This document shows positions 4,114 to 62,773 of a stretch of DNA of 64,000 bases, piece by piece. Origin of the DNA: Gaiellaceae bacterium (lineage in GTDB: Bacteria; Actinomycetota; Thermoleophilia; Gaiellales; Gaiellaceae); contig DASVEW010000032.1 of NCBI GenBank assembly GCA_036380355.1, positions 23-64,022 on the forward strand, read 5' to 3'. The first letter of the stretch is position 1, and every line of letters begins with the position of its first letter. Made by a program: the position numbers and the translations under genes. The notes under the pieces are model-generated. The model searched no databases and was not told the DNA's origin. It worked only from the letters and a program-made list of their open reading frames with translations.

Positions 4114-4599
4114 CTAGCGAGGCCAGGCTTCCGAAAGGCGGCGGCGGGTCTCCAGCAGGTGCTCCGGGATCACCTTCACGTCGGCGAGCACCGGCATGAA
4201 GTTCGTGTCGCCGGCCCAGCGAGGCACCACGTGGAGGTGGACGTGGTCCACGACGCCGGCGCCGGCGATGCGTCCGAGGTTCCAGCCGACGTTGTAGCCC
4301 TGCGGCCCGTAGACCTGGGCGAGCGCGCCGATGCCCTGCTGCGCGAGCCGGTGGATCTCGAGCGCCTCCTCGTCGGTCAGCTCGCCGAACTCGGCGACGT
4401 GCCGGTTCGGCGCGACCATGTAGTGGCCCGAGGCGTAGGGATACTTGTTGACGATCGCCGTCGCGCGCCGGCCGCGATGAATCACCAGCGCGGCCTCGTC
4501 GTCGTCCGCCTCGATGGCGGTGCAGAAGATGCAGCCCTCCTGCTCGTCGGCGCTGCCGACGTACTCGAGCCGCCACGGGGCCCAAAGAGGCTTCGTCAC
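4114..4599 (-). CDS. HIT-family protein (Ap4A phosphorylase/nucleotidyl hydrolase-like)
   Basis: Histidine triad HVHLHVVPRW. N-terminal WAPWRLEYV...CIFC is typical of the actinobacterial Ap4A-phosphorylase type. Confidence 0.85.
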   Translation of the reverse strand: MTKPLWAPWRLEYVGSADEQEGCIFCTAIEADDDEAALVIHRGRRATAIVNKYPYASGHYMVAPNRHVAEFGELTDEEALEIHRLAQQGIGALAQVYGPQGYNVGWNLGRIAGAGVVDHVHLHVVPRWAGDTNFMPVLADVKVIPEHLLETRRRLSEAWPR

Positions 4600-4612
4600 G
4601 CCGGGAGAGGCA

Positions 4613-5593
4613 CTAGATCCAGCGCTTCCAGCGGAAGAACCCGACGAGGCCCAGGAAGACGGCGATCATCGCGGTGACCATCGCCCAGAACGCCTCGCGG
4701 CTCCCTTCGCCCGGGTAGTCCACGTTCATCCCGAAGATGCCCGTGATGAACGTCAGCGGCAGGAAGACGGCGCCGACGACGGTCAGCACGCGCAGGATGT
4801 CGTTCTGGCGGTGCTGGATCGCCGACTCGTTCGTGGCCTCGAGCGCCTCGACGACCTCCTTGTAGTTGTCGAGCAGGTCCCAGAGCCGTTCGGAGGCGTC
4901 CACGAGGTCGTCGAAGTAGAGCTCGAGGTCCTGGGGCAGGAAGCGCTCCACCTGCCGCTCGAGCACGCGGAGCGTCGGTCGCTGGGGCTTGATGATCTTG
5001 CGGTAGCTGATGATCTCCTGCTTCGCGCGGGAGATGTCTCGGACGATCTCGTGCGAGCGCTCGGCCTCGATGTCGTCCTCGATCGCGTCGAGCTTGTGCC
5101 CGATCTTGTCCAGGATCGGGAAGCAGTAGTCGAAGAGGTCGTCGAGGACGTGGTAGAGCAGGTAGCCGGAGCCCTTGCCGAAGAGGCCGTCGCGCAGCTC
5201 CGGGTCGTCCGAGCAGCGCTGGAAGAGGCGGGTCACCGGCAGCAACTCGACCGTCGGCAGCGTGACGAGGTAGTCCGGGCCGAGGAAGATGTCCAGCTCG
5301 CCGGCGTTCAGCCGCTTCGCCGCCTTGTCATAGACGGGGAAGTGGAGGACGATGAAGAGGTAGTCGTCGTACTCGTCGACCTTCGGGCGCTGGCGCTTGG
5401 AGACGACATCCTCGACATCGAGGGGGTGCCAGCCGAGGCGCCCGGCGAGCGCCTGCGCCTCCTCCGTGGTCGGGGAGTCGAGGTGGACCCAGGTCAGGCC
5501 GTTGGCGGTGAGCTCAGCAGGCTGGCGCGCGGGAGGTGCCGCGACCTCGCGCGTCGCGCGCGAGCGAGCCCGGATGCGGGGCAGGCTGGGCAT
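4613..5593 (-). CDS. corA: CorA-family magnesium/cobalt transporter
   Basis: 326 aa with two C-terminal TM helices and the GMN signature (GIFGMNVDYPG). Confidence 0.9.
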   Translation of the reverse strand: MPSLPRIRARSRATREVAAPPARQPAELTANGLTWVHLDSPTTEEAQALAGRLGWHPLDVEDVVSKRQRPKVDEYDDYLFIVLHFPVYDKAAKRLNAGELDIFLGPDYLVTLPTVELLPVTRLFQRCSDDPELRDGLFGKGSGYLLYHVLDDLFDYCFPILDKIGHKLDAIEDDIEAERSHEIVRDISRAKQEIISYRKIIKPQRPTLRVLERQVERFLPQDLELYFDDLVDASERLWDLLDNYKEVVEALEATNESAIQHRQNDILRVLTVVGAVFLPLTFITGIFGMNVDYPGEGSREAFWAMVTAMIAVFLGLVGFFRWKRWI

Positions 5594-6959: not shown

Positions 6960-7032
6960 GGGCCTGTAGCTCAGGGGATAGAGCGCGCGCCTCCGGAGCG
7001 CGAGGTCGCAGGTTCGATTCCTGCCAGGCCCA
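6960..7032 (+). tRNA. tRNA-Arg (anticodon CCG)
   Basis: Hand-folded 73-nt cloverleaf. Acceptor GGGCCTG/CAGGCCC, anticodon stem CGCGC/GCGCG with loop CTCCGGA, T arm GCAGG-TTCGATT-CCTGC, discriminator A. Confidence 0.9.
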
Positions 7033-7271: not shown

Positions 7272-8588
7272 TCAGCGATCGCCGGTATCGACCGCCCGGA
7301 CGATTTGCGCCAGCACGATCGTCCCGAGCAGTGCGATCGCTCCGAGGAGCAGCGCAATGATCGTCAGCACGATCGGATCGTCGAGCGGTTTGTCATCGGC
7401 GGCTCCGATGACCCGGTCTGCGAAGCCCCTCGCGGTTCCGGCGACCCCGCGGACCGCTCGGGCGACCGATTCCTTGATGTCCTCTACGCGGCTTCCGCCT
7501 GCACCCAACTCGTCAGCGGTGCCTCCACCTGCTGCGAGGAAGGCGATGTCTGCGATCGGCTCGCGGCAGGTGTTTTCCGTGCGGGCCTTTCGCACCCTTG
7601 CCTGCGACATCTTCCCGCTCGCGATCACGATCGGGACGGCCGCGGCATCCCGCTTCGCCCCGCGCGCCCGAATGACGAGTCGATAGCCGCCCGGCGGGAG
7701 TGTTCGCCCGCGAAACCGTCCACGGAAGGGAAGCCGGTTCACGCCTGCATGGGCTCGGACCGAGTAGCTTCCCAGCCGCTTGCAGGACGGGTAGACGCGC
7801 ACGATCGAGATCCGCAGGACGGCGCCGCGCGAGAGCCGGAAGGTCAGCGTGGTTCCGGCAGCCTTGCGGCCGGGGCGCAGGACGGTGCGAGAGGCGCGGA
7901 CCGCGCTTCGTTGCTCGCTGCAAGCTCTCGGCTTCGGCGGGCAGCTGGCAGCTCTGAGCGTGAACGGCCCGGCCGGCATCGAGCCGGAGGTCGAGGCCGA
8001 GGCGGCCGCTCCGGGGGCGCTGAGCCCCTCTCGGGAGCCCGACCGTCCGGTTGACCCGCTTCCGGACCCGCTCGTCGGCGTCGACCCGCTGCCAGTGCCG
8101 CCTGTCGTGGGCGTCTGCGTGGTCGTCGACGTCGTCAGCGTCGGGGCCGGAGGCGGCGGTGCAGGAGGCGGCGGAGGCGGCGGGAGATTCGGCGGCGGCG
8201 GCGGAGGCGGAAGCGGAGGCGGTGGCGGAAGGGGAGGCGGCGGCGGAAGGGGAGGCGGCGGCGGGAGCGGTGGTGGAGGCGGGAGCGGCGGCGGTGGTGG
8301 TGGAGGCGGTAGCGGCGGCGGTGGTGGTGGAGGCGGTAGCGGCGGTGGCGGTGGTGGAGGCGGTAGCGGCGGTGGCGGCGGCGGAGGCGGGAGTGGGGGA
8401 GGCGGCGGCGGAGGAGGAAGCGCGCTTTCCCGTGGCGTACCAGCCCCGACCTGCGCGTCGGACGCGCCCCCTGCCGGGGCCAGCACGAAACAGGCAACCG
8501 CGGCCGCAAGCGAAGCGGTCAGGGTTCGTTTCCTCACCGCAGAACCCCCGTACGCATCTTCACAGAGCGATTCCCCGGTCGCGCGCAA
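7272..8588 (-). CDS. secreted, C-terminally membrane-anchored protein with an extreme poly-proline tract, a Thr/Ser/Gly linker and a beta-sandwich-like domain
   Basis: Signal-like N-terminus (alternative GTG start at 8537 preceded by GGGGG). Tract is (P8L)x5 then (P5L)x4 plus further P runs. C-terminal TM is IVLTIIALLLGAIALLGTIVLAQIV. The TM region shows high GC3 on this strand. Confidence 0.7.
   Translation of the reverse strand: MRATGESLCEDAYGGSAVRKRTLTASLAAAVACFVLAPAGGASDAQVGAGTPRESALPPPPPPPPLPPPPPPPPLPPPPPPPPLPPPPPPPPLPPPPPPPPLPPPPPLPPPPPLPPPPPLPPPPPLPPPPPPPNLPPPPPPPAPPPPAPTLTTSTTTQTPTTGGTGSGSTPTSGSGSGSTGRSGSREGLSAPGAAASASTSGSMPAGPFTLRAASCPPKPRACSEQRSAVRASRTVLRPGRKAAGTTLTFRLSRGAVLRISIVRVYPSCKRLGSYSVRAHAGVNRLPFRGRFRGRTLPPGGYRLVIRARGAKRDAAAVPIVIASGKMSQARVRKARTENTCREPIADIAFLAAGGGTADELGAGGSRVEDIKESVARAVRGVAGTARGFADRVIGAADDKPLDDPIVLTIIALLLGAIALLGTIVLAQIVRAVDTGDR
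8142..8417. repeat. tandem 27-bp and 18-bp coding repeats (poly-Pro tract)
   Basis: The + strand reads GGCGGTAGCGGCGGCGGTGGTGGTGGA-type units in tandem. They encode PPPPPPPPL and PPPPPL on the - strand. Confidence 0.85.
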
Positions 8589-10058: not shown

Positions 10059-11055
10059 GGGCCGCTCCGGCGACCCGCACTACGGGAAGACGATGCGCGG
10101 GATCGTCGCCTACGCGCCCGATCCGGTCGTCGCGATCCTCGACTCCGAGCGGGCCGGGGAGAGCTACCGCGACATCCCGATCGTCGCGACCGTGGAGGAG
10201 GCGATGGCCTACGGGCCAACGACGGCGACCGTAGGCGTGGCGACGCAGGGCGGCCGCTTTCCGCCCGCGTGGCGCGAGCTGCTGAAGGACTCCATCCGCG
10301 CCGGGCTCGACCTCGAGAGCGGGCTGCACGAGTTCATCAGCGAGGACCCGGAGCTGACCGTGCTGGCGCGCGAGCACGGCGTCGAGCTCCGCGACCTCCG
10401 CAAGCCCCCGACCGATCTCAGCGTCCCGACCGGCGAGAACCTGCGCGTACCGGCGAAGATCGTGCTCACGGTCGGCTCGGACTGCGCGATCGGCAAGAAG
10501 ACCGTCGCTGTGGAGCTCGACCTCGCCGCCCGCGGGCGCGGACTGAAGTCCGTGTTCGTGCCCACCGGGCAGACGGGGATCGCGATCGCGGGCTGGGGGA
10601 TCGCGATCGACGCTGTCGTGGCGGACTTCCTGGCCGGCGCTGCCGAGCGGCTCGTCGTCGAGGGGGCCGCCCGCGAAGGCGAGCTGCTGTGGGTCGAGGG
10701 GCAGGGATCGCTGAACCATCCGGCGTATTCCGGGGTCACGATGGGCCTGATCCACGGAAGCGCCCCGCACGCCTACGTCCTCGTCCACAAGGCGCGAGCG
10801 ACCCACGTCGAGGGCTACCCCGACCATCCGCTACCCCAGCTCCGGGACCTGATCGAGCTCCACGAGCGATCGTCGCTCCTCCTCCGTCCGGCGAAGGTCG
10901 CGGCCGTCGCGCTGCACACCGGCGGCCTCGAGGAGGACGCTGCGCGCGCCGAGATCGCCCGCGTTGCTGAGGAGACCGGGCTCCCGACGGACGATCCCGT
11001 GCGCTTCGGCGCCGATCCCCTCCTGGACGCCGTCCTGGACGTCGTGGCAGACTGA
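10024..11055 (+). CDS. DUF1611-family protein (reported as D-glutamate N-acetyltransferase DgcN in some bacteria)
   Basis: 343 aa. Contains GTMRGI-type, VGSDCAIGKKTVA (P-loop-like) and GQGSLNHPAYSGVT motifs as I remember them for DUF1611. Overlaps the epimerase gene. Confidence 0.8.
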   Translation: MASGKKYLVLAEGRSGDPHYGKTMRGIVAYAPDPVVAILDSERAGESYRDIPIVATVEEAMAYGPTTATVGVATQGGRFPPAWRELLKDSIRAGLDLESGLHEFISEDPELTVLAREHGVELRDLRKPPTDLSVPTGENLRVPAKIVLTVGSDCAIGKKTVAVELDLAARGRGLKSVFVPTGQTGIAIAGWGIAIDAVVADFLAGAAERLVVEGAAREGELLWVEGQGSLNHPAYSGVTMGLIHGSAPHAYVLVHKARATHVEGYPDHPLPQLRDLIELHERSSLLLRPAKVAAVALHTGGLEEDAARAEIARVAEETGLPTDDPVRFGADPLLDAVLDVVAD

Positions 11056-12635
11056 TGCGGTTTCGCAGAGGAATGAAGGGGTTTAGGGAAACCGCCGTCT
11101 TGACGGCCTGCATCTGCGGGCTGCTTGCGCTGGCCGCGCCGGCTGCGGCGGACGTCAGCGTCGGGGTGGCCGACGACCGCGGCAAGCTTGCGCCGGACGG
11201 CGGCGCCGCGTTCCTCGCCGCCATGCGGGACGTCGGGCTGACCGAGAACAGGATCACGCTTGCCTGGGACCCCGACCATCCAACGACCATCCGCGAGAAG
11301 GACTCGCTCGACCGCTACATCGCGAACGCAACGGCAGCGGGCGTCCGCATCTCGATGGTGATCGCGCCCAGCCGTGCGCGTGCGCTCTTTCGCTCCACCT
11401 CGGCGACCGGCCAGTACATCGCGTTCCTCGCCCAGGTCGCCCGGACCTACCCGCAAGTGAGGGACATCGCCGTCGGCAACGAGCCGAACCAGCCCCGGTT
11501 CTGGCAGCCCCAGTTCAGCACCCGCGGCGCCGGCCTCGCGTGCACCTCGTACGCCCGCGTCCTGGCGCAGGCCTACGACGCGCTCAAGGCGGTCAACACC
11601 TCGATCACCGTCCTCGGCGTCTCGCTCTCCCCGCGCGGGAACGACAACGCCCTCGCGGCCACGAACGCCTCGACCTCGCCGGTCCGCTGCATCCGCGACA
11701 TGGGCGCCGCCTACCGCGCCGGCCGCCGCAAGCGGCCGATCATGGACGAGCTCGCCTTCCATCCGCATCCGAACTCGAACACCGACACCTTCCTCGTCGG
11801 CTACCGCTGGCCGAACGCCGGCACGCCGAACCTCGGGCGGATCAGGCAGGCCGTTTGGGATGCCTTCCGCGGCACCGCCCAGCCGGTCTTCGCCGAGGCC
11901 GGGCGGCCCGTGTCGCGCGCGGCGCGGCCGCCGCTCCGGTTCCGCCTCAACGAGATCGGCTGGCAGACGTCGATCCCGGCCTCCTCGATGCACGCGTACT
12001 ACGGGCGCGAGTCGGTCCCGCGCCTGGCGGAAGACCGCCACCAGTCCGACGTCTACTCGGCCCTGATCCCGTACTACGCGTGTGACCAGTCCGTGAGCTC
12101 GATGCTCTACTACGGCCTCGTCGACGAGCCCGACCTCGAACGCTGGCAGGCCGGCCTGCTCCGCGCCGACTGGAGCCGCAGGCCGTCGTACAACACCGTG
12201 AAGTCGATGATCGCCCGCGGTCGCACCAAGTGCGCCCGCCGCGCGGTCCGTTGGCGTCACTCGACCGTCGTGGTCGGCGCGACCGCGAAGTTCGGCGAGC
12301 GACGCCGGTCGGCCGGCGACACGAACTGGACGTTCGTCTCGAGCTCCGAGGAGGCGAGCACGTTCACGGGCGCGATGTACCGCCTGAAGAGCCGCAGGCT
12401 GGGCGCGAAGGCGCGGAAGCGCCTTCTGGCCGCGGTCGGTGTGAGGAGGGCTCCGAAGCCCGTTCTCACCGCCCGCGGCAAGGTCCGCGCACACCAGGGG
12501 GCGTTCGTCCGCTTCAAGCGGAAGCGCCTCAGGCCGGGCCACTACGTGTTCGCGGTCCGGCTCCGGGCCGAGATGAACCCCACCCGGACGACGGCGTTCG
12601 TCTCGCGGCCCTTCGCAGTCGGAACGCGTAGGTAG
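11055..12635 (+). CDS. secreted TIM-barrel glycoside-hydrolase-like protein (clan GH-A features)
   Basis: Signal peptide (LALAAPAAADV). VGNEPN (acid/base-type NEP) and LNEIGWQ (nucleophile-type) motifs. C-terminal Ig-like tail. Family not resolved. Confidence 0.6.
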   Translation: MRFRRGMKGFRETAVLTACICGLLALAAPAAADVSVGVADDRGKLAPDGGAAFLAAMRDVGLTENRITLAWDPDHPTTIREKDSLDRYIANATAAGVRISMVIAPSRARALFRSTSATGQYIAFLAQVARTYPQVRDIAVGNEPNQPRFWQPQFSTRGAGLACTSYARVLAQAYDALKAVNTSITVLGVSLSPRGNDNALAATNASTSPVRCIRDMGAAYRAGRRKRPIMDELAFHPHPNSNTDTFLVGYRWPNAGTPNLGRIRQAVWDAFRGTAQPVFAEAGRPVSRAARPPLRFRLNEIGWQTSIPASSMHAYYGRESVPRLAEDRHQSDVYSALIPYYACDQSVSSMLYYGLVDEPDLERWQAGLLRADWSRRPSYNTVKSMIARGRTKCARRAVRWRHSTVVVGATAKFGERRRSAGDTNWTFVSSSEEASTFTGAMYRLKSRRLGAKARKRLLAAVGVRRAPKPVLTARGKVRAHQGAFVRFKRKRLRPGHYVFAVRLRAEMNPTRTTAFVSRPFAVGTRR

Positions 12636-12796
12636 TGCCCCACCAGGCAATCCACGCCGGTTTCTGGCCCGCGATCACGCTGCGCCAGAGCCGACCCTCC
12701 TCCTCACCAAGGCTGTCCAGCCTTGGCTCGTCGGACGGCGCGCTCTGGCTTGGTGCTCGCGACCCAGAAAAGGGGCAGGATCACCTGGAGGGGCAC
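12635..12796 (+). repeat. 162-bp imperfect-palindrome intercistronic element, copy 1
   Basis: About 89% identical over its full length to 29633..29794 (18 mismatches, hand alignment). Folds into one long hairpin with conserved apical stem CCAAGGCT/AGCCTTGG. Confidence 0.85.
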
Positions 12797-12798
12797 TA

Positions 12799-13926
12799 GT
12801 GCGCGACCCGCGGCTCGAGAAGCTCGCCGAGCTGATCGCCGGCTACTCGCTCGACCTCCGCGAGGGGCAGGTCTACCGGATCGACGGCGAGGAGGTCTCG
12901 ACGCCGCTGGCCGTCGCGCTGTACGCCGCGGCCCTCCGCCGCGGCGCCCACCCGTACACGCGGATCGTCCCGGCGGGGCTCGACGAGATCGAGCTCGAGG
13001 CGGCCTCGGACGAGCAGCTGACCTACATCCCGGAGGTCGAGCGGATCGCGACCGAGGAGCTGGACGCCTGGACGTCCCTCTGGGGAACCGTCAACACCCG
13101 TGCGCTCACACGCGCGGACACCGAGCGGCGCCGCCTGCAGCTCTCGACGCACTACCGGATGGTCAACCGGCGCTGGGAGCGGATCAGCGCGGGCGAGCTC
13201 GCGTGGTGCGGCACCCTTTACCCGAGCCAGGCGCACGCGCAGGACGCCGAGATGTCCCTGGCCGAGTTCGAGGACTTCGTCCACGGCGCCTGCCACACGC
13301 GCGAGGGCGACGACCCGATCGCGCACTGGCAGAGCATGTCGCAGACGCTCACGGCGCGGGCGCGGGAGCTCGAGGGCGTGCGCGAGCTCCGCATCGTCGG
13401 CCCCGACACCGACCTCAGGGTGGTCGTCGAGGGCCGCCGGTGGTTGCCCTCGGACGGCAAGGACAACATGCCCGACGGCGAGGTCTTCACGAGCCCGGTC
13501 GAGACCGGGACGAACGGCGAGATCTACTTCGCCTTCCCGTCGGTCTTCCAGGGCCAGGAGGTGGAGAACGTCCGCCTGCGGTTCGAGGACGGGCGGGTCG
13601 TGCACGCCGAAGCGAGCTCGGGCGAGGAGTACCTGCGCTCGCTCCTCGACACCGATCAGGGGGCGAGCGTGCTCGGCGAGGTCGCGTTCGGGCTCAATTA
13701 CGAGATCGACCGCTTCACCCGCGACATCCTCTTCGACGAGAAGATCGGCGGGACGATGCACGTCGCGCTCGGCGGCGGCTTCGACGAGGCGGGAACCGAG
13801 AACAAGTCCGACCTGCACTGGGATCTCATCTGCGACCTCCGCGAGGAGGGCGAGGTGTACGCCGACGGGCAGCTCGTCTGGAAGACGGGCTCGTTCCTCG
13901 CCGAGCCGGCGGTCGAACGTGTCTGA
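12799..13926 (+). CDS. M29-family aminopeptidase (AmpS/PepS-like), paralog 1
   Basis: 375 aa. LAELIAGYSLDL at the N-terminus, NMPDGEVFTSP, and GGTMHVALG...LHWDLI at the C-terminus are typical of thermophilic-metalloprotease M29. Confidence 0.85.
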   Translation: MRDPRLEKLAELIAGYSLDLREGQVYRIDGEEVSTPLAVALYAAALRRGAHPYTRIVPAGLDEIELEAASDEQLTYIPEVERIATEELDAWTSLWGTVNTRALTRADTERRRLQLSTHYRMVNRRWERISAGELAWCGTLYPSQAHAQDAEMSLAEFEDFVHGACHTREGDDPIAHWQSMSQTLTARARELEGVRELRIVGPDTDLRVVVEGRRWLPSDGKDNMPDGEVFTSPVETGTNGEIYFAFPSVFQGQEVENVRLRFEDGRVVHAEASSGEEYLRSLLDTDQGASVLGEVAFGLNYEIDRFTRDILFDEKIGGTMHVALGGGFDEAGTENKSDLHWDLICDLREEGEVYADGQLVWKTGSFLAEPAVERV

Positions 13927-27502: not shown

Positions 27503-28678
27503 GTGGCGCGCGTCCTGGTCGGTGTCACCGGGGGGATCGCCGCTTACAAGGCGTGCGAGCTGGTGCGTCTGTTCGTCAAGGGCGGCCACGAGGTCGTCCC
27601 GCTCGTGACGCCCGGCGCCGACCGCTTCGTGCGGGCCGAGACCTTCCACGCGCTCGCGCGGCGGGCGCCCGATGCGGCGTACCCGCACCTCGAGCGCGCG
27701 GATCTCTACCTGATCGCGCCGCTCACGGCCAACACGCTCGCGCAGCTCGCCCACGGGCTCGCCGACAACGTCGTCTCCGAGGCGGCGCTCGCACACGACG
27801 GGCCGCTGCTTGTGGCGCCCGCGATGAACGTGCGGATGTGGAACCACCCGGCGACGCAGGCCAACGTCGAGACGCTCAGAAGACGCGGCGTGGAGATCGT
27901 CGGGCCCGAGGAGGGCGACCTCGCCGAGGGCGAGGAAGGCGTCGGCCGGATGGCGGAGCCCGTGGACATCTTCGCGCGCGCCGAGCAGCTTCTCGGGGCA
28001 AGTAACAGTCTGTTACTTGGAAAGACGGTGGTCGTTGCGGCCGGTGGCACGCGGGAGCCGATCGACGCGGTGCGCTACGTCGGCAACCGCTCCTCCGGGC
28101 GGATGGGCGCTGCGGTGGCCGAAGAAGCTCGCCGCCGCGGAGCCCGGGTGACGCTGATCGCGTCGAATCTGGGCGTCGATCCTCCCACCGGCGTCCAGGT
28201 CGTGCAGGCCCCGACCGCGGCCGACCTGGCCCGGGAGACTGTGGCCCGGGGAGACGCGGACGTCGTGGTCATGGCCGCGGCCGTCTCCGACTACCGGCCT
28301 GCGGACCCTCGCGCCGACAAGCGCCCGAAGGACGAGGCGCCCTGGCAGCTCGAGCTCGAACCGACCGACGACGTGCTGCGGACGCTCGGCGCGCAGTCGA
28401 CGAACGGCCGGATCCTGGTCGGCTTCGCCGCGGAGACCGGGGAGGACGGTCTCGCCCGCGCCAGGGCGAAGCGGACCGGCAAGAATGCAGATCTCGTCGT
28501 CTACAACGATGTGGGCAGGTCGGACGTGGGGTTCGAGTCGGCCGACAACGAGGTCGTACTGATTTCCGAGGCAGGGGAGCGGAGGGTGAGCAAGGCGCCG
28601 AAGAGCCGGATCGCAGCCGAGATCTGGGACGAGGTCGAGCGGCTGCTAGGGGAGAACGGTGGCCGAGCGGAGGGCTGA
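27503..28678 (+). CDS. coaBC: bifunctional phosphopantothenoylcysteine decarboxylase / phosphopantothenate-cysteine ligase
   Basis: GVTGGIAAYK (flavoprotein domain), PAMN, then AGGTREPIDAVRYVGNRSSG (CoaB domain). Confidence 0.9.
   Translation: MARVLVGVTGGIAAYKACELVRLFVKGGHEVVPLVTPGADRFVRAETFHALARRAPDAAYPHLERADLYLIAPLTANTLAQLAHGLADNVVSEAALAHDGPLLVAPAMNVRMWNHPATQANVETLRRRGVEIVGPEEGDLAEGEEGVGRMAEPVDIFARAEQLLGASNSLLLGKTVVVAAGGTREPIDAVRYVGNRSSGRMGAAVAEEARRRGARVTLIASNLGVDPPTGVQVVQAPTAADLARETVARGDADVVVMAAAVSDYRPADPRADKRPKDEAPWQLELEPTDDVLRTLGAQSTNGRILVGFAAETGEDGLARARAKRTGKNADLVVYNDVGRSDVGFESADNEVVLISEAGERRVSKAPKSRIAAEIWDEVERLLGENGGRAEG
27999..28019. repeat. perfect 21-bp AT-rich palindrome CAAGTAACAG-T-CTGTTACTTG inside the coaBC interdomain linker
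   Basis: Read directly. Same motif family as 49760..49780 and 49816..49836. Confidence 0.8.
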
Positions 28679-29630
28679 GGAGCGTCCGAGGTCGATCGAG
28701 GTCTCGGGCGAGACGCTCGACCGCGTGACCGCGAACATCGGCCGGGTCGTCCACGCGCCACAGGAGACGCTCCGGCTGGCCGTGCTCTCGCTCGTCAGCG
28801 AGGGACACCTGATCATCGAGGACTTCCCCGGGGTCGGGAAGACGATGCTCGCGAAGGCGCTCGCGCGCTCGCTCGACTGCTCCTTCTCGCGGATCCAGTT
28901 CACGCCCGACCTGCTCCCGTCGGACGTCACCGGCGTGAACGTGTTCGACCAGCGGACGAACGAGTTCGAGTTCCGGCCCGGCCCGGTCTTCGCGAACCTG
29001 CTGCTCGTGGACGAGGTCAACCGCGCCTCGCCCAAGACCCAGGCGGCGCTCCTCGAGTGCATGCAGGAGAACCAGGTGACGGTCGACGGGGTCAGCTATC
29101 CGCTCGGCCTGCCGTTCATGGTGCTGGCGACGCAGAATCCAATCGAGTACGAGGGCACGTATCCGCTGCCGGAGGCGCAGCTCGACCGCTTCACGATGCG
29201 CCTCTCCATCGGCTACCCGCCGCTCGCCGAGGAGGCGCGGATGCTCAACGAGCAGACGAGCGAGCCGCCGCTCGAAACCCTCGAGCCCGTCTCCAGTACG
29301 GCGGAGATCGTCGGCGCGATCGAGGACGCGAAGCGCGTCTTCGTCGAGGAGAGCGTCAACCGCTACGTGGTCGCGCTGCTCCGGCACACGCGCGCCGACG
29401 AGCGGCTCTACCTCGGCGCGAGCCCCCGGGCCGGCATCGCCCTGCTGCGCGTCGCCAAGGCGCGCGCGATCTCGGAGGGCCGCGAGTACGTCCTGCCGGA
29501 CGACGTCAAGGCGGTCGCCGAACCGGTGCTCGGCCACAGGCTGATCCTCGGCCCGGAAGCGCGTGCGGCCGGCCTCGGGGCCTCAGAGCTGATCGCGGAC
29601 GCCGTCGAGCGGACGCCGGTCCCCGTCTAG
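28659..29630 (+). CDS. MoxR-family AAA+ ATPase
   Basis: Walker A FPGVGKT. Also FSRIQFTPDLLPSDVTG, Walker B LLLVDEVNR and ATQNPIEYEGTYPLPEAQLDRF. Confidence 0.9.
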   Translation: MAERRAEERPRSIEVSGETLDRVTANIGRVVHAPQETLRLAVLSLVSEGHLIIEDFPGVGKTMLAKALARSLDCSFSRIQFTPDLLPSDVTGVNVFDQRTNEFEFRPGPVFANLLLVDEVNRASPKTQAALLECMQENQVTVDGVSYPLGLPFMVLATQNPIEYEGTYPLPEAQLDRFTMRLSIGYPPLAEEARMLNEQTSEPPLETLEPVSSTAEIVGAIEDAKRVFVEESVNRYVVALLRHTRADERLYLGASPRAGIALLRVAKARAISEGREYVLPDDVKAVAEPVLGHRLILGPEARAAGLGASELIADAVERTPVPV

Positions 29631-29632
29631 TC

Positions 29633-29794
29633 GTGCTCCTCCAGGCGATACACGCCTGCTTCTGGCCCGCGATCACTCGGCGCCAGAGCCGACCCTCCTC
29701 CTCACCAAGGCTAGGCAGCCTTGGCTCGTCGGAGTGCGCGCTCTGGCTTGGTGCTCCCGACCCAGAAACGGGGCAGCATCACCTGAAGGAGCAC
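29633..29794 (+). repeat. 162-bp imperfect-palindrome intercistronic element, copy 2
   Basis: See copy 1. Lies between the moxR stop (29628-30) and the DUF58 ATG (29797). Confidence 0.85.
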
Positions 29795-29796
29795 TG

Positions 29797-31020
29797 ATGC
29801 TGACCCGCCGCGGCCGGTTCACGCTGGCGCTGGGCGGAGGCACCTACCTGGGCGCCTGGGCATTCGGTGCGCAGGTGCTCTACGCGCCTGCCGTCGGCCT
29901 CTTGCTCGCCGTCGGCGTAGCGCTGATCTGGACGAACGCGCTCGCGCGGCCGCTCCGTCTCCACCGCCACCTCGACCGCGAACGGCCGGTCGAGGGCGAC
30001 GACGTCGTCGTGAGGGTCGAGCTCGAGGCGGAGGGAGGCGTGATCCCCGCAACGGTGCTGCTGCACGAGCCGGTCGGGAGGCTGGGCGAGCAGGAGGTCG
30101 TCGTCGCGCGGGACGGACGATTCCTCCGCGCGGTCTACCGGCTGCCGAACGTCCCGCGGGGCCGCTACCGCTTCACCGGCGCCCGCGCCGTCGTGGACGA
30201 CCCCTTCGGGCTCGCGAAGCGCGTCCAGCCGCTCGAGGACGCGGCGCCGCTGCTCGTCTATCCGCGGCTCGCGCGCCTGAACGCGCTCTTCGCCGAGCGG
30301 GGCCTCCGCGCCCACGGCGCCGGGCGGATGCTCCTGCGCCGCCCGACCGGCTTCGAGCTCCACAGCGTGCGCGAGTACCAGAGCGGCGAGTCCCTCCGGC
30401 GGGTCCACTGGCCGTCCACGGCCCGCCGCCACCAGCTGATGGTGAAGGAGCTCGAGGACGCCCCGCGCGACGAGCTCGTCATCGTGCTGGACGCGGAGGC
30501 CGGGCACGGTGCCGGGCGGCCGGGCGACTCGAGCTTCGACGCGCAGGTGCGCGCGGCCGGATCCCTCCTTTGGGCCCACGCGCGCCGCGGCCGGCACGCC
30601 CGTCTCGTAGTCACGAGCGCCGCCGCGGACGACGCTGTGTCGGTCCGCAACTACGAGCGGGACTGGCCGCGCGCGCTCGAGATCCTCGCCTCGGTGGAGC
30701 AGAACGGCCGCCGCCCGGTCGAGACGCTCCTGAGCGACCAGGCCGGGGCGGCCACCCATGCGCGCGACCTCGCAGTCGTCACCGCGGCGCTGCGGCCTCC
30801 GCTGGTCCAGACGCTGATCTCCCGCGCGGCGGCGAGGCAGGAGGTCTCGGTCGTGTACGTGGACGCACCCTCCTATGCCGGCCGCCGGCAGGCGACGCTC
30901 GGCGCCGCGACCGCCGTCCTGCGTCTGGAGAGCGCCGGCATCGCCGTTGCCGTGCTCCGCCGGGGCGACGACCTGGAGGCAGTGCTCGGCGGAGCGGAGA
31001 GTGGGGCGGCGCATGGTTAG
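29797..31020 (+). CDS. DUF58-domain protein (vWA-like partner of MoxR)
   Basis: ATG 29797. Two N-terminal TM segments. REYQSGESLRRVHWPSTAR is the DUF58 signature. Confidence 0.85.
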   Translation: MLTRRGRFTLALGGGTYLGAWAFGAQVLYAPAVGLLLAVGVALIWTNALARPLRLHRHLDRERPVEGDDVVVRVELEAEGGVIPATVLLHEPVGRLGEQEVVVARDGRFLRAVYRLPNVPRGRYRFTGARAVVDDPFGLAKRVQPLEDAAPLLVYPRLARLNALFAERGLRAHGAGRMLLRRPTGFELHSVREYQSGESLRRVHWPSTARRHQLMVKELEDAPRDELVIVLDAEAGHGAGRPGDSSFDAQVRAAGSLLWAHARRGRHARLVVTSAAADDAVSVRNYERDWPRALEILASVEQNGRRPVETLLSDQAGAATHARDLAVVTAALRPPLVQTLISRAAARQEVSVVYVDAPSYAGRRQATLGAATAVLRLESAGIAVAVLRRGDDLEAVLGGAESGAAHG

Positions 31021-60605: not shown

Positions 60606-61628
60606 ATGAGAGCACGAAGGCTCATCCCGCTTGCGATCGTCGCTGTTGCTGCGATCGTCGTCGCTGCGGCAGCGGGGCTCGCGTCCAGCGGGTCGAGCGA
60701 CGCTGCGCCAAAGGTCTACAAGGTCGGCCTGGTCAGCGACGTCGGTCGCTTCAACGACCGGTCGTTCAACCAGTCCGCGCTCGAGGGTCTTCGGCGCGCC
60801 CAGCGCGTCCTGAAGGTTCAGGGCCGCGCGGTCGAGTCGCGCCAGACGAGCGACTACATCCCGAACCTCTCGGCGCTCGCACGTCAGCGCTACGACGCCA
60901 CGATCTCGGTCGGTTTCCTGCTCGCCGAGGCGACGAACACCGTCGCCACGCGCTTCCGGAACTCGAAGTTCGCGATCATCGACTACTCCGTCGCGGCAGC
61001 GCCGTTCAAGAAGAACCGGAACGTGGTGGGCCTGGTCTTCGCGACCAACGAGAACAGCTACATGATCGGCTGCCTCTCGGCCCTGATGGCGAACCAGCGT
61101 GGACGCAGGATCATCAGCGCGGTCGGCGGCATCAAGCTCCCGACGGTGGACATCTTCATCGCCGGGTACCGGGCCGGCGCCCGTCGCTGCGTCCCCGGGA
61201 CGCAGGTCCTGATCGGCTACTCGCAGGACTTCGTCGCGCAGGACAAGTGCAAGGAGGTCGCGCTGAACCAGATCGCCCAGGGCTCGCAGGTCGTGTTCCA
61301 GGTCGCCGGTGGCTGTGGCCTCGGCGCGCTCGACGCGGCCAAGGAGCGGGGCGTGTGGGGTCTGGGCGTCGACAAGGACCAGAAGGTCCTCGGGGCTCAC
61401 ATCCTCACGAGTGCGGTCAAGCGGGTGGACACGTCGGTCTACCTGACCGCGAAGGCCGTCAAGGAGGGCAAGTTCCGCGGTGGCCGCGACCTGAACTTCA
61501 ACCTGAGGAACGGTGGCGTGGCTGTCGGCCGGATCGACCGGCGCGTACCGCGCGCCTTCATCCGGCGGATGAACAACCTGAAGCCGCTGATCATGAGCGG
61601 CCGCATCAAGCCGCCGAAGAAGCTCTAG
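60606..61628 (+). CDS. BMP-family (PnrA-like) ABC substrate-binding protein, paralog 1 (no lipobox Cys)
   Basis: Contains VGLVSDVGRFNDRSFNQSA and GGIKLPTVDIFIAGY. N-terminal TM/signal without Cys. Confidence 0.85.
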   Translation: MRARRLIPLAIVAVAAIVVAAAAGLASSGSSDAAPKVYKVGLVSDVGRFNDRSFNQSALEGLRRAQRVLKVQGRAVESRQTSDYIPNLSALARQRYDATISVGFLLAEATNTVATRFRNSKFAIIDYSVAAAPFKKNRNVVGLVFATNENSYMIGCLSALMANQRGRRIISAVGGIKLPTVDIFIAGYRAGARRCVPGTQVLIGYSQDFVAQDKCKEVALNQIAQGSQVVFQVAGGCGLGALDAAKERGVWGLGVDKDQKVLGAHILTSAVKRVDTSVYLTAKAVKEGKFRGGRDLNFNLRNGGVAVGRIDRRVPRAFIRRMNNLKPLIMSGRIKPPKKL

Positions 61629-61645
61629 GCGCATCCTCGGACTCA

Positions 61646-61677
61646 CGAAGGGGCGGGCAGTTGGGCCCGCCCCTTCG
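61646..61677 (+). terminator. 13-bp perfect GC hairpin between the two BMP genes
   Basis: CGAAGGGGCGGGC-AGTTGG-GCCCGCCCCTTCG. No U tract. Confidence 0.5.
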
Positions 61678-61723
61678 CGGTCCACGCCGATAGCATCGCC
61701 CCGAGCAACAAAAGGGGGCAAAG

Positions 61724-62773
61724 GTGCGCAAGACGCAATGGCTCGCGGCGTTCCTCGCCTGCGGGCTCCTCGCTGTCGGTTTCGCCTGCGGCGGAGACGA
61801 CGACGACGGTGAGGAAGCCGGAGGAGCGACCACGGCCGAGACAACGGCCGGCGAGCCGATCAATGTCGGTCTCGTCAGCGACGTCGGTCGCTTCAACGAC
61901 CGCTCGTTCAACCAGTCCGCGCTCGAGGGCCTGCAGCGCGCGGAGGAAGAGCTCGGAGTCACAGGCCGGCCCGTCGAGTCGAGACAGACGAGCGACTACG
62001 TGCCCAATCTGTCGACCCTCCCGAGGGACGGCTTCGAGCTCACGATCGGCGTCGGGTTCCTGCTCGCGGAGGCGCTCAACACGGCCTCGAAGCGGTTCCC
62101 GGACTCCAACTTCGCGATCATCGACTACTCCGTGAACGCAGAGCCGTTCGCGAAGAACCCGAACGTGCAGGGCCTGACGTTCGCGACGAACGAGAACAGC
62201 TACATGATCGGTTGCCTGGCCGCGCTGATGGTCGAGCGGCAGGGCGGCCAGCAGGTGATCAGCGCGGTGGGCGGGATCAAGCTGCCGACCGTCGACATCT
62301 TCATCGCCGGCTACCAGGCGGGCGCGAAGCAGTGCAACCCGGGCATCAGGGTCCTGATCGGCTACTCCCAGGACTTCGTCGCCCAGGACAAGTGCAAGGA
62401 GGTCGCGCTCAACCAGATCGCACGCGGCTCGCAGGTGATCTTCCAGGTCGCCGGCGGGTGCGGCCTCGGCGCCCTCGACGCGGCGCAGGAGCGGGACAGG
62501 TGGGGCATCGGCGTCGACCGCGACCAGTCGAGCCTGGGGCCGCACATCCTCACGAGCGCGGTCAAGCGCGTCGACCAGTCCGTGTTCCTCACGGCGCAAG
62601 CCGTTCAGGAGGGCGAGTTCCAGGGTGGGACCGACGCGACGTTCGACCTCGAGAACGAGGGCGTCGCGATCGGGAAGATCAGCCCGGACGTGCCGCAAGA
62701 GTTCATCGACCGGATGAACGAGATCAGGGACCAGCTGATCTCCGGAGAGCTCGAGGCGCCCGCGACGCTGTAG
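61724..62773 (+). CDS. BMP-family (PnrA-like) ABC substrate-binding lipoprotein, paralog 2
   Basis: GTG 61724 after AAGGGGG. Lipobox LAVGFAC. About 70% identical to paralog 1 by eye. Confidence 0.85.
   Translation: MRKTQWLAAFLACGLLAVGFACGGDDDDGEEAGGATTAETTAGEPINVGLVSDVGRFNDRSFNQSALEGLQRAEEELGVTGRPVESRQTSDYVPNLSTLPRDGFELTIGVGFLLAEALNTASKRFPDSNFAIIDYSVNAEPFAKNPNVQGLTFATNENSYMIGCLAALMVERQGGQQVISAVGGIKLPTVDIFIAGYQAGAKQCNPGIRVLIGYSQDFVAQDKCKEVALNQIARGSQVIFQVAGGCGLGALDAAQERDRWGIGVDRDQSSLGPHILTSAVKRVDQSVFLTAQAVQEGEFQGGTDATFDLENEGVAIGKISPDVPQEFIDRMNEIRDQLISGELEAPATL

Follow-up and report, generated by a model that had tools for sequence, protein, structure and literature searches.

A 162-nucleotide (nt) palindromic element occurs twice in a 64,000-nt stretch of a Gaiellaceae bacterium genome (GenBank assembly GCA_036380355.1, contig DASVEW010000032.1, positions 23 to 64,022 of the forward strand; hereafter the window, with position 1 as its first letter) and is very probably a TA-duplicating miniature inverted-repeat transposable element (MITE) of Gaiellaceae. 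A preliminary description of the window, made from its sequence, had read the two copies as a conserved hairpin that sequesters the Shine-Dalgarno (SD) sequence of the downstream gene. We favor, as moderately likely, a reading in which a TA-inserting MITE is retained at stop/start junctions, where its ends and an open frame running through it (the relay frame) would rebuild translational coupling.

Family size and TA duplication at insertion sites

The family was collected with two search patterns. A 19-mer from the 5' inner arm, searched in GTDB species representatives, gave 42 loci, of which 35 were full copies, spread over 17 metagenome-assembled genomes (MAGs) of Gaiellaceae or "uncultured Actinomycetes" with 1 to 6 copies per genome. 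An independent 20-mer from the other arm, searched in metagenomes, added 16 full copies as well as others that are truncated, diverged, or deleted internally. K-mer matches that arose by chance in unrelated genes (7 of the 42 genome matches and 7 of the 28 metagenome matches) were dropped. In the pooled family, 53 full copies occupy 43 independent sites across at least 17 Gaiellaceae species-level genomes, and capture-recapture between the two patterns (7/16 and 29/37) gives an estimate of about 2 to 14 copies per MAG. Plasmids, phages, and IMG/VR held no element matches, and a plasmid or phage origin was rejected because BLAST returned no match. The apical hairpin also failed as a search key: CACCAAGGCTNNNNAGCCTTGG matched more than 120 viral contigs, all from one unrelated phage family with different flanks, and was dropped as a coincidence. 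In that phage family (IMG/VR contigs L001 to L120) the hairpin CACCAAGGCTTCCGAGCCTTGG lies in a strongly conserved noncoding block and has only the 8-bp stem in common with the element.

Both window copies are exactly 162 nt long, as first described, and differ without gaps at 18 positions (5, 8, 15, 18, 25, 27, 45, 47, 81 to 83, 102, 103, 125, 137, 145, 154, and 158); their flanks are unrelated, and similarity stops sharply at both boundaries. The window contains no further full copy, and the two lie 17 kb apart, as would suit a recent local duplication without any wider family, an explanation raised at the outset. It is already refuted by the 51 further copies in other genomes and metagenomes, by the 18 differences between unrelated flanks, and by the orthology of copy 2 to copies in three other species.

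The terminal inverted repeats (TIRs; GTGCCCCTCCAGGC... / ...(A/G)CCTG(A/G)AGGGGCAC) are complementary to the last base in all copies, whose ends always read GTGC...GCAC. Copy size is 159 to 163 nt in 52 of the 53 copies and exactly 162 nt in 45. There is no transposase gene inside the element, and its sole frame would encode a 54-codon peptide without a homologue.

Insertion with duplication of TA is proven by the comparison of filled and empty orthologous sites. Filled locus L127 reads ccTA[element]TAgtctctc and empty locus L152 reads ccTAgtctctc, so that a single TA was duplicated on insertion. At the copy-1 site, six relatives (L191 to L196) carry the same two genes without the element; empty L192, L195, and L196 read ...TA|GTG..., a TAG stop sharing its G with the GTG of the peptidase gene, and the window reads ggTA[element]TAGTGcgcgac. 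Copy 1 thus has TA on both flanks, a point missing from the preliminary description. Family-wide, TA flanks 36 of the 53 left ends and 38 of the 53 right ends; where it is present on both sides, the outer base is C in 19/30 and G in 27/30 copies, which gives the target C-TA-G.

The insertion of copy 2 is old: L128, L154, and L197 also carry it, between flanks that are only 80 to 89% identical. At this site, the more distant relatives L198 to L201 have a junction that is tight or bears a remnant, the left-end remnants being 5 to 7 nt long (TA-GTGCCCC-g-GTG in L201; TAG-GTGCC-GTG in L200). A 7-nt remnant in L127 lies at a site that is filled in L152, L140, and L181. The window itself contains a 15-nt remnant of a third copy, not mentioned in the preliminary description, at a site where L122 has a full copy with flanks homologous to the window on both sides. 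The junction of this remnant with its flank creates a GTG at 4599 that may now be the downstream start. All four remnants (15, 7, 7, and 5 nt) keep the sense-5' end and lose the rest up to the other boundary; they could be excision footprints or hairpin-driven deletions. At the copy-2 junction (29795 to 29805), the window, L128, and L197 (filled) read CAC TGATG CTG ACC and filled L154 reads CAC TAG TC ATG CTC ACC; the 3-nt-shorter junction creates a stop/start overlap and may reflect tightening after insertion. On metagenome contig L181 (7648 to 8126), two copies lie 156 nt apart and bracket a very short gene, their sites being singly filled in L152/L140 and in L127.

The GC content of the window is 71%, and CTAG is about 8-fold depleted in it (22 observed versus 169 expected); 11 of the 22 CTAG sites have their TA inside a predicted stop codon. 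Because CTAG is rare and half of it lies on stops, insertions would land mostly on TAG or TAA stops, and those elsewhere in coding DNA would be lost. Rough gene calls in the window gave a TAG stop in 27 of 56 genes, TGA in 25, and TAA in 4, a TAG share unusually high for 71% GC and one that would offer more target sites to the element. The transcription direction of neighboring genes was called from the phase of GC at the second and third codon positions, with the 12 nt beside the element left out. Thirty copies have the CCTCCTCCTC strand in sense between codirectional genes, 13 have it in antisense, 3 lie between convergent genes, and 1 lies between divergent ones. With orthologous insertions collapsed, the count is 25 versus 14 independent codirectional sites (binomial P = 0.11). 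Both orientations are common.

Many copies, both orientations, terminal repeats, and target duplication are what the preliminary description had listed for the alternative of a plain MITE, and that alternative holds to this extent; positions are the exception, since copies sit nonrandomly, on stop codons at tight gene junctions. The family is an old, low-copy one, and in kind it is a bacterial MITE of the ERIC / YPAL / Correia / RUP type without a sequence relationship to any of these.

Hairpin pairing and strand asymmetry

The helices, the CCTCCTCCTC internal loop, and the GGAGG and AAGGAG motifs of the 3' arm were all found as first described. Each window copy folds into one long hairpin (copy 1, −95.1 kcal/mol, z = −7.4; copy 2, −84.9 kcal/mol, z = −5.3), and none of 200 shuffles folds as well. 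The apical stem (12707-14 / 12719-26) is unchanged between the copies, whose loops are GTCC (copy 1) and AGGC (copy 2), and the compensatory change from C-G to T-A (U-A) at element positions 5/158 is real. A point absent from the preliminary description is that the opposite strand of copy 1 folds better, at −115.8 kcal/mol.

Pairing was evaluated on a 52-copy alignment of the GAGGAGGAGG strand (60 pairs, 3,116 cells). On this strand, 97.9% of the cells are standard pairs, compared with 88.1% for the same 60 pairs on the other strand; among the non-Watson-Crick cells of this comparison, 317 are G.U and 11 are A.C. Both sides have changed in 23 pairs (8.4 ± 1.7 in shuffles, with 0 of 500 shuffles reaching 23), and sliding the partners along the alignment lowers pairing to 35 to 45%. 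The GAGGAGGAGG strand folds better by 10 to 37 kcal/mol in 53/53 copies, whichever strand the host genes transcribe, and at the rare one-sided changes in top-sense copies the wobbles favor the GAGGAGGAGG strand 16 to 5. Selection of the hairpin at the mRNA level was rejected accordingly: which strand pairs better is independent of host transcription, so the mRNA is not the context that shaped the structure.

Outer stems are 79% identical between random copies and about 91% identical between orthologous ones, from which it follows that the covariation arose in the mobile lineage before insertion. The core is more conserved than the outer stems (92% versus 79%). Its near-invariance was set aside as partly an ascertainment artefact, as only 7/16 independently found copies keep the 19-mer. 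The CCTCCTCCTC (CCUCC) loop diverges or is lost in the more distant copy L166.

This one-sided pairing suggests, as with REPINs, that one strand has a role in propagation in single-stranded form (single-stranded DNA or RNA). The element might then propagate through a single-stranded hairpin of one strand (REPIN- or IS200-like single-stranded DNA, with an HUH or other structure-recognizing enzyme) or through an RNA intermediate, and relay-frame features could still explain retention. Besides the pairing, folding, and wobble asymmetries and the covariation that predates insertion, the remnants, which always keep one end, speak for such a route. REPINs (RAYT-mobilized REP doublets) share with the element conserved blocks, a hairpin whose stem often carries compensatory changes, and an asymmetric excision after which a few bases at one end remain (PMC3116915). 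REPINs are linked to a RAYT gene at their flank and do not duplicate TA; the Gaiellaceae element does duplicate TA and has perfect TIRs. The family consensus already contains part of the strand asymmetry, which may be a legacy of descent and not a product of selection. HUH elements (IS200/IS605) make no target duplication. The TIRs, perfect to the last base, and the 2-bp TA duplication at CTAG, a hallmark of IS630/Tc1-mariner elements (PMC2170065), point against a single-stranded propagation form, and we consider this route quite unlikely. A hybrid, in which a mobile coupling cassette propagates through a one-strand, single-stranded hairpin, combining Tc1/IS630-like TA duplications, REPIN- or structured-RNA-like selection in which only the GAGGAGGAGG strand tolerates G.U wobbles whatever the host transcribes, and host retention for strict ribosome hand-over, also seems unlikely.

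The preliminary reading of an SD-sequestering hairpin survives in part. The hairpin is conserved, compensatory changes are abundant, and a partition-function model places the SD of the 3' arm about 80% paired in the free mRNA of both window copies (mean unpaired probability in copy 1, 0.20). The further step to a dedicated regulatory RNA was not supported. Such a cis-regulatory RNA (a switch or thermometer) would use the hairpin to sequester the SD and so control specific genes, in line with a stable covarying structure that buries the SD and is conserved in situ. The element instead occurs in many copies at 43 sites with unrelated genes downstream, in both orientations, with TIRs and with TA duplication shown by empty sites; 3 sites lie between convergent genes, every top-sense copy pairs better on the strand that is not the mRNA, and no conserved unpaired core resembles a ligand pocket except the CCUCC loop, lost in L166. 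The preliminary description had not recognized a known RNA family in the element, and it matches none: Rfam 15 returned nothing relevant at gathering or permissive thresholds, the best subthreshold match being MIR839 (24.5 bits versus a gathering score of 200). A regulatory RNA of this kind is very improbable. A terminator or promoter function was rejected as well, since positions 12300 to 13100 around copy 1 hold no terminator- or promoter-like sites and no T-run follows the element.

Relay frame and proposed translational coupling

Along host transcription, nearly all copies have a common layout. The upstream TA|G stop overlaps the GTG of the element (TAGTG), an open frame runs through the hairpin, the element end is preceded at about 7 nt by an SD-like G(G/A)AGG(G/A)G, and the stop of the relay frame is built with the flanking TA or TG (TA+G/A or TGA). 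In about half of the copies the downstream start is at +2 (TAGTG, TAATG, or TGATG), and in most others it is no more than 19 nt away. The ends being inverted repeats, a GTG start and an SD-bearing end are available in both orientations. The relay frame of copy 1, an open 54-codon frame that the preliminary description does not mention, has no internal stop, and the peptide predicted for the window copies begins VPHQAIHAGFWPAIT....

The statistics of the sites point to selection for an open frame across the element. At independent sites, the frame is open in sense at 33.3/39 and in antisense at 16/39 (Fisher P = 1.3e-4); at discordant sites, a frame open only in sense outnumbers one open only in antisense by 19 to 2 (P = 2.2e-4). 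The main antisense stop is a TGA that arises when alignment column 72 is A; on the other strand this column is a synonymous Ser position. A occurs there at 16/22 top-sense sites versus 2/12 bottom-sense sites. Frameshifted (±1-nt) variants are enriched in convergent or divergent contexts (2/4 versus 4/47), and 46/53 copies have a length divisible by 3. Mean identity is 93.3% between orthologous copies and 85.3% in the flanking protein-coding DNA, which means that the element is constrained in situ.

In the mechanism that we favor, insertion at TA (preferably CTAG) falls on stop codons, typically at stop/start overlaps of the form TAGTG or TAATG, and the element would be tolerated and later conserved since its ends rebuild what the junction needs. 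TA and the first G of the element would restore the upstream TAG stop, which the GTG of the element overlaps; a 54-codon frame without apparent coding function would traverse the hairpin; the 3' terminus would supply the SD; and the second TA (or TG) would give a stop overlapping or abutting the downstream start. One termination-reinitiation junction would thereby become two in series. A ribosome on the relay frame would melt the hairpin that buries the downstream SD and start and would then be delivered to that start, and, the termini being inverted repeats, either orientation would work if the frame is without a stop codon. Judged with the folding models, termination-reinitiation through the relay frame, with the ribosome unwinding the hairpin, is the most consistent mechanism. 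The rival idea that a ribosome on the upstream stop alone frees the SD was rejected, as modeling was inconsistent between the two window copies, and it is because masking of the 5' arm does not by itself reliably free the SD and start codon that termination-reinitiation is favored. Burial of the SD follows from TIR complementarity in a mobile element, and it probably matters through translational coupling and not as a switch. Termination-reinitiation agrees with published descriptions of translational coupling at −1/−4 overlaps (PMC10666635, PMC12548453), which coupling requires (PMC10666635).

Several observations weigh against this reading. When the 5' arm is masked in the model, imitating a ribosome positioned at the upstream stop, release of the SD and start is not consistent; double-stranded cut-and-paste transposition does not predict consistently better pairing on one element strand; and gene callers never predict the relay peptide, which has no homologue among 5.8 billion proteins and was for that reason rejected as a real protein or transposase fragment. 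GC-rich DNA often contains open frames, and the top orientation has a second one besides the relay frame. The association of orientation with column 72 is drawn from about 34 independent sites, and subfamily history could account for part of it. Some copies have the downstream start 12 to 19 nt off or lie between convergent genes, where coupling is irrelevant. Finally, a parent insertion sequence, sought as matching termini 0.7 to 3 kb apart and flanked by TA, is missing from the 511 kb of fetched loci, and IMG/VR lacks the terminal patterns and thus yields no parent transposase.

Some of these points would suit a plain selfish MITE without a translational role, for which stop codons are simply the available, harmless TA/CTAG sites. 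Its transcribed hairpin would act at most like those of REP, ERIC, or Correia elements (3' end protection, RNase III/E processing), and the open frame would be a by-product of GC-rich composition and subfamily insertion history. TIRs, target duplication, insertion in either orientation, and remnants all typify MITEs; at 71% GC open frames occur often, and a second top-strand frame is open too; the relay peptide is annotated nowhere; and known MITE RNAs modulate mRNA stability (PMC2229807). This explanation has against it the asymmetry of sense and antisense frames within the same sequences, the preference for lengths in multiples of 3, the exact stop and start overlaps at both ends, and conservation above that of neighboring coding DNA, and we think it rather unlikely. 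Retention through coupling remains the reading that we prefer; as for its central component, we lean slightly toward functional translation of the relay frame.

The mobilizing enzyme has, in our estimate, an even chance of being of the IS630/Tc1-mariner type. TA duplication with CTAG preference is a hallmark of these elements (PMC2170065), and the element shows both; PMC2170065, citing Tenzen 1990 and 1991, describes IS630 as duplicating TA and preferring CTAG (the preference after Tenzen & Ohtsubo 1991). MITEs with TA ends, stem-loops, and open reading frames (ORFs) are known (PMC2229807).

Within the window (Table 1), copy 1 occupies the entire gap between an unannotated 526-amino-acid ORF (TAG stop, 12633 to 12635) and a Peptidase_M29 gene (GTG 12799; 12799 to 13926), whose start is backed by a tandem paralog and by relatives. 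The tandem Peptidase_M29 paralogs (12799 to 13926, and 13919 onward) share an 8-nt overlap (GTGTCTGA), an arrangement kept in 6/6 relatives examined. Elsewhere, positions 8106 to 8446 hold about 21 overlapping copies of a G-rich repeat with a 9-, 12-, or 15-nt period (GGCGGTGGTGGT...), probably a glycine-rich coding repeat. Positions 60719 to 62557 hold two tandem paralogous segments about 1.14 kb apart and 78 to 91% identical, a recent tandem gene duplication. Two tRNA genes (572 to 644 and 6960 to 7032) are the only gathering-level Rfam matches in the window.

Table 1. Positions in the window of the element copies and of the associated features
Feature	Position	Strand	Details
MITE copy 1	12635..12796	+	Termini GTGC...GCAC; from alignment with copy 2 and 51 other copies, folding, and element-free relatives L191-L196
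MITE copy 2	29633..29794	+	Between a MoxR-type AAA ATPase gene (28659-29630) and a DUF58 gene (29797-31020)
Target TA, left copy	12633..12634	+	Forms, with the element's first G, the TAG stop 12633-12635 of upstream ORF 11055-12635
Target TA, right copy	12797..12798	+	From empty sites and family-wide TA flanks
Relay frame, copy 1 (putative)	12635..12799	+	GTG (G shared with upstream TAG), 54 codons, TAG stop 12797-12799 sharing its G with the Peptidase_M29 GTG
Relay frame, copy 2 (putative)	29633..29797	+	GTG start, 54 codons, TGA stop 29795-29797 overlapping the DUF58 ATG (TGATG)
SD-like GGAGG, copy 1	12787..12791	+	In the 3' terminal inverted repeat, 7 nt before GTG 12799, paired with the 5' arm
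SD-like AAGGAG, copy 2	29786..29791	+	In the 3' terminus of copy 2
CCTCCTCCTC asymmetric internal loop, copy 1	12696..12705	+	GAGGAGGAGG on the other strand; defines element orientation
Remnant of a third copy, GTGCCTCTCCCGGCG, 15 nt	4599..4613	-	Directly after the TAG stop of minus-strand gene 4613-5593; L122 has a full copy at this site

Known repeat families and significance

Among known systems, those nearest to the element are the ERIC, Correia, and RUP MITEs and the relay ORFs of MIRUs. Enterobacterial ERIC/IRU and YPAL of Yersinia are 127 to 168 bp long, form a stem-loop over the whole element, and have TA termini and target duplication; they also lie in transcribed intergenic operon regions in both orientations, carry a contiguous ORF, and have filled and empty sites (PMC2229807). 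The Gaiellaceae element differs in that it has no sequence similarity to them (Rfam and BLAST negative), belongs to a different phylum, and has far fewer copies (about 2 to 14 per MAG); its pairing is strand specific, and its termini encode start, SD, and stop, which gives a separate relay cistron and not a fusion. RUP of pneumococcus is likewise a small TA-duplicating MITE, attributed to the transposase of an IS630-family element, IS630-Spn1 (PMC2229807, PMC2170065); in the Gaiellaceae element, by comparison, the frame is kept open, and no parent was found in the fetched loci or IMG/VR. Correia/NEMIS elements of Neisseria resemble it in TA duplication, long TIRs, a cotranscribed hairpin RNA, and the lack of a known transposase (PMC2229807). 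Correia elements contain promoter elements together with an IHF site and serve as substrates of RNase III, whereas Gaiellaceae copy 1 has no promoter-like sites.

MIRUs are, like this element, an actinobacterial repeat located between operon genes. They are 46- to 101-bp tandem units (variable-number tandem repeat type) without long TIRs or a whole-element hairpin. The Gaiellaceae element is by contrast a single 162-nt TIR palindrome with TA duplication and is not tandem, one locus having two copies 156 nt apart. MIRU ORFs have been proposed to couple with the gene at the site of insertion, the internal ORF being translationally coupled to the downstream gene so that the effect of the insertion is minimal (PMC12548453). 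The ends of the Gaiellaceae relay frame overlap the flanking stop and start in the same manner, the 5' end reading TAGTG and the 3' end, in about half of the copies, TAGTG, TAATG, or TGATG.

Compared with known MITEs, the element is distinctive in termini that encode start, SD, and stop and could form a relay cistron in either orientation, in the statistical evidence for a frame kept open along transcription, and in strong in situ conservation combined with strand-specific pairing. We found no literature describing mobile elements in Gaiellaceae, which are abundant soil bacteria and almost entirely uncultured. For annotation, 162-nt gaps of this kind are to be treated as insertions and not as regulatory leaders. 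The conservation above coding DNA and the upkeep of the hairpin on one strand raise the question of how palindromic MITEs for which no transposase is known, such as Correia and ERIC, are copied. The family illustrates how a transposon can colonize the overlapping stop/start operon junctions of a compact high-GC genome without polar effects. If the relay frame is translated, the element would be a natural, orientation-independent "ribosome hand-over" module, which would bear on the mechanism of coupling (unfolding versus reinitiation) and could serve as a spacer in synthetic operons.

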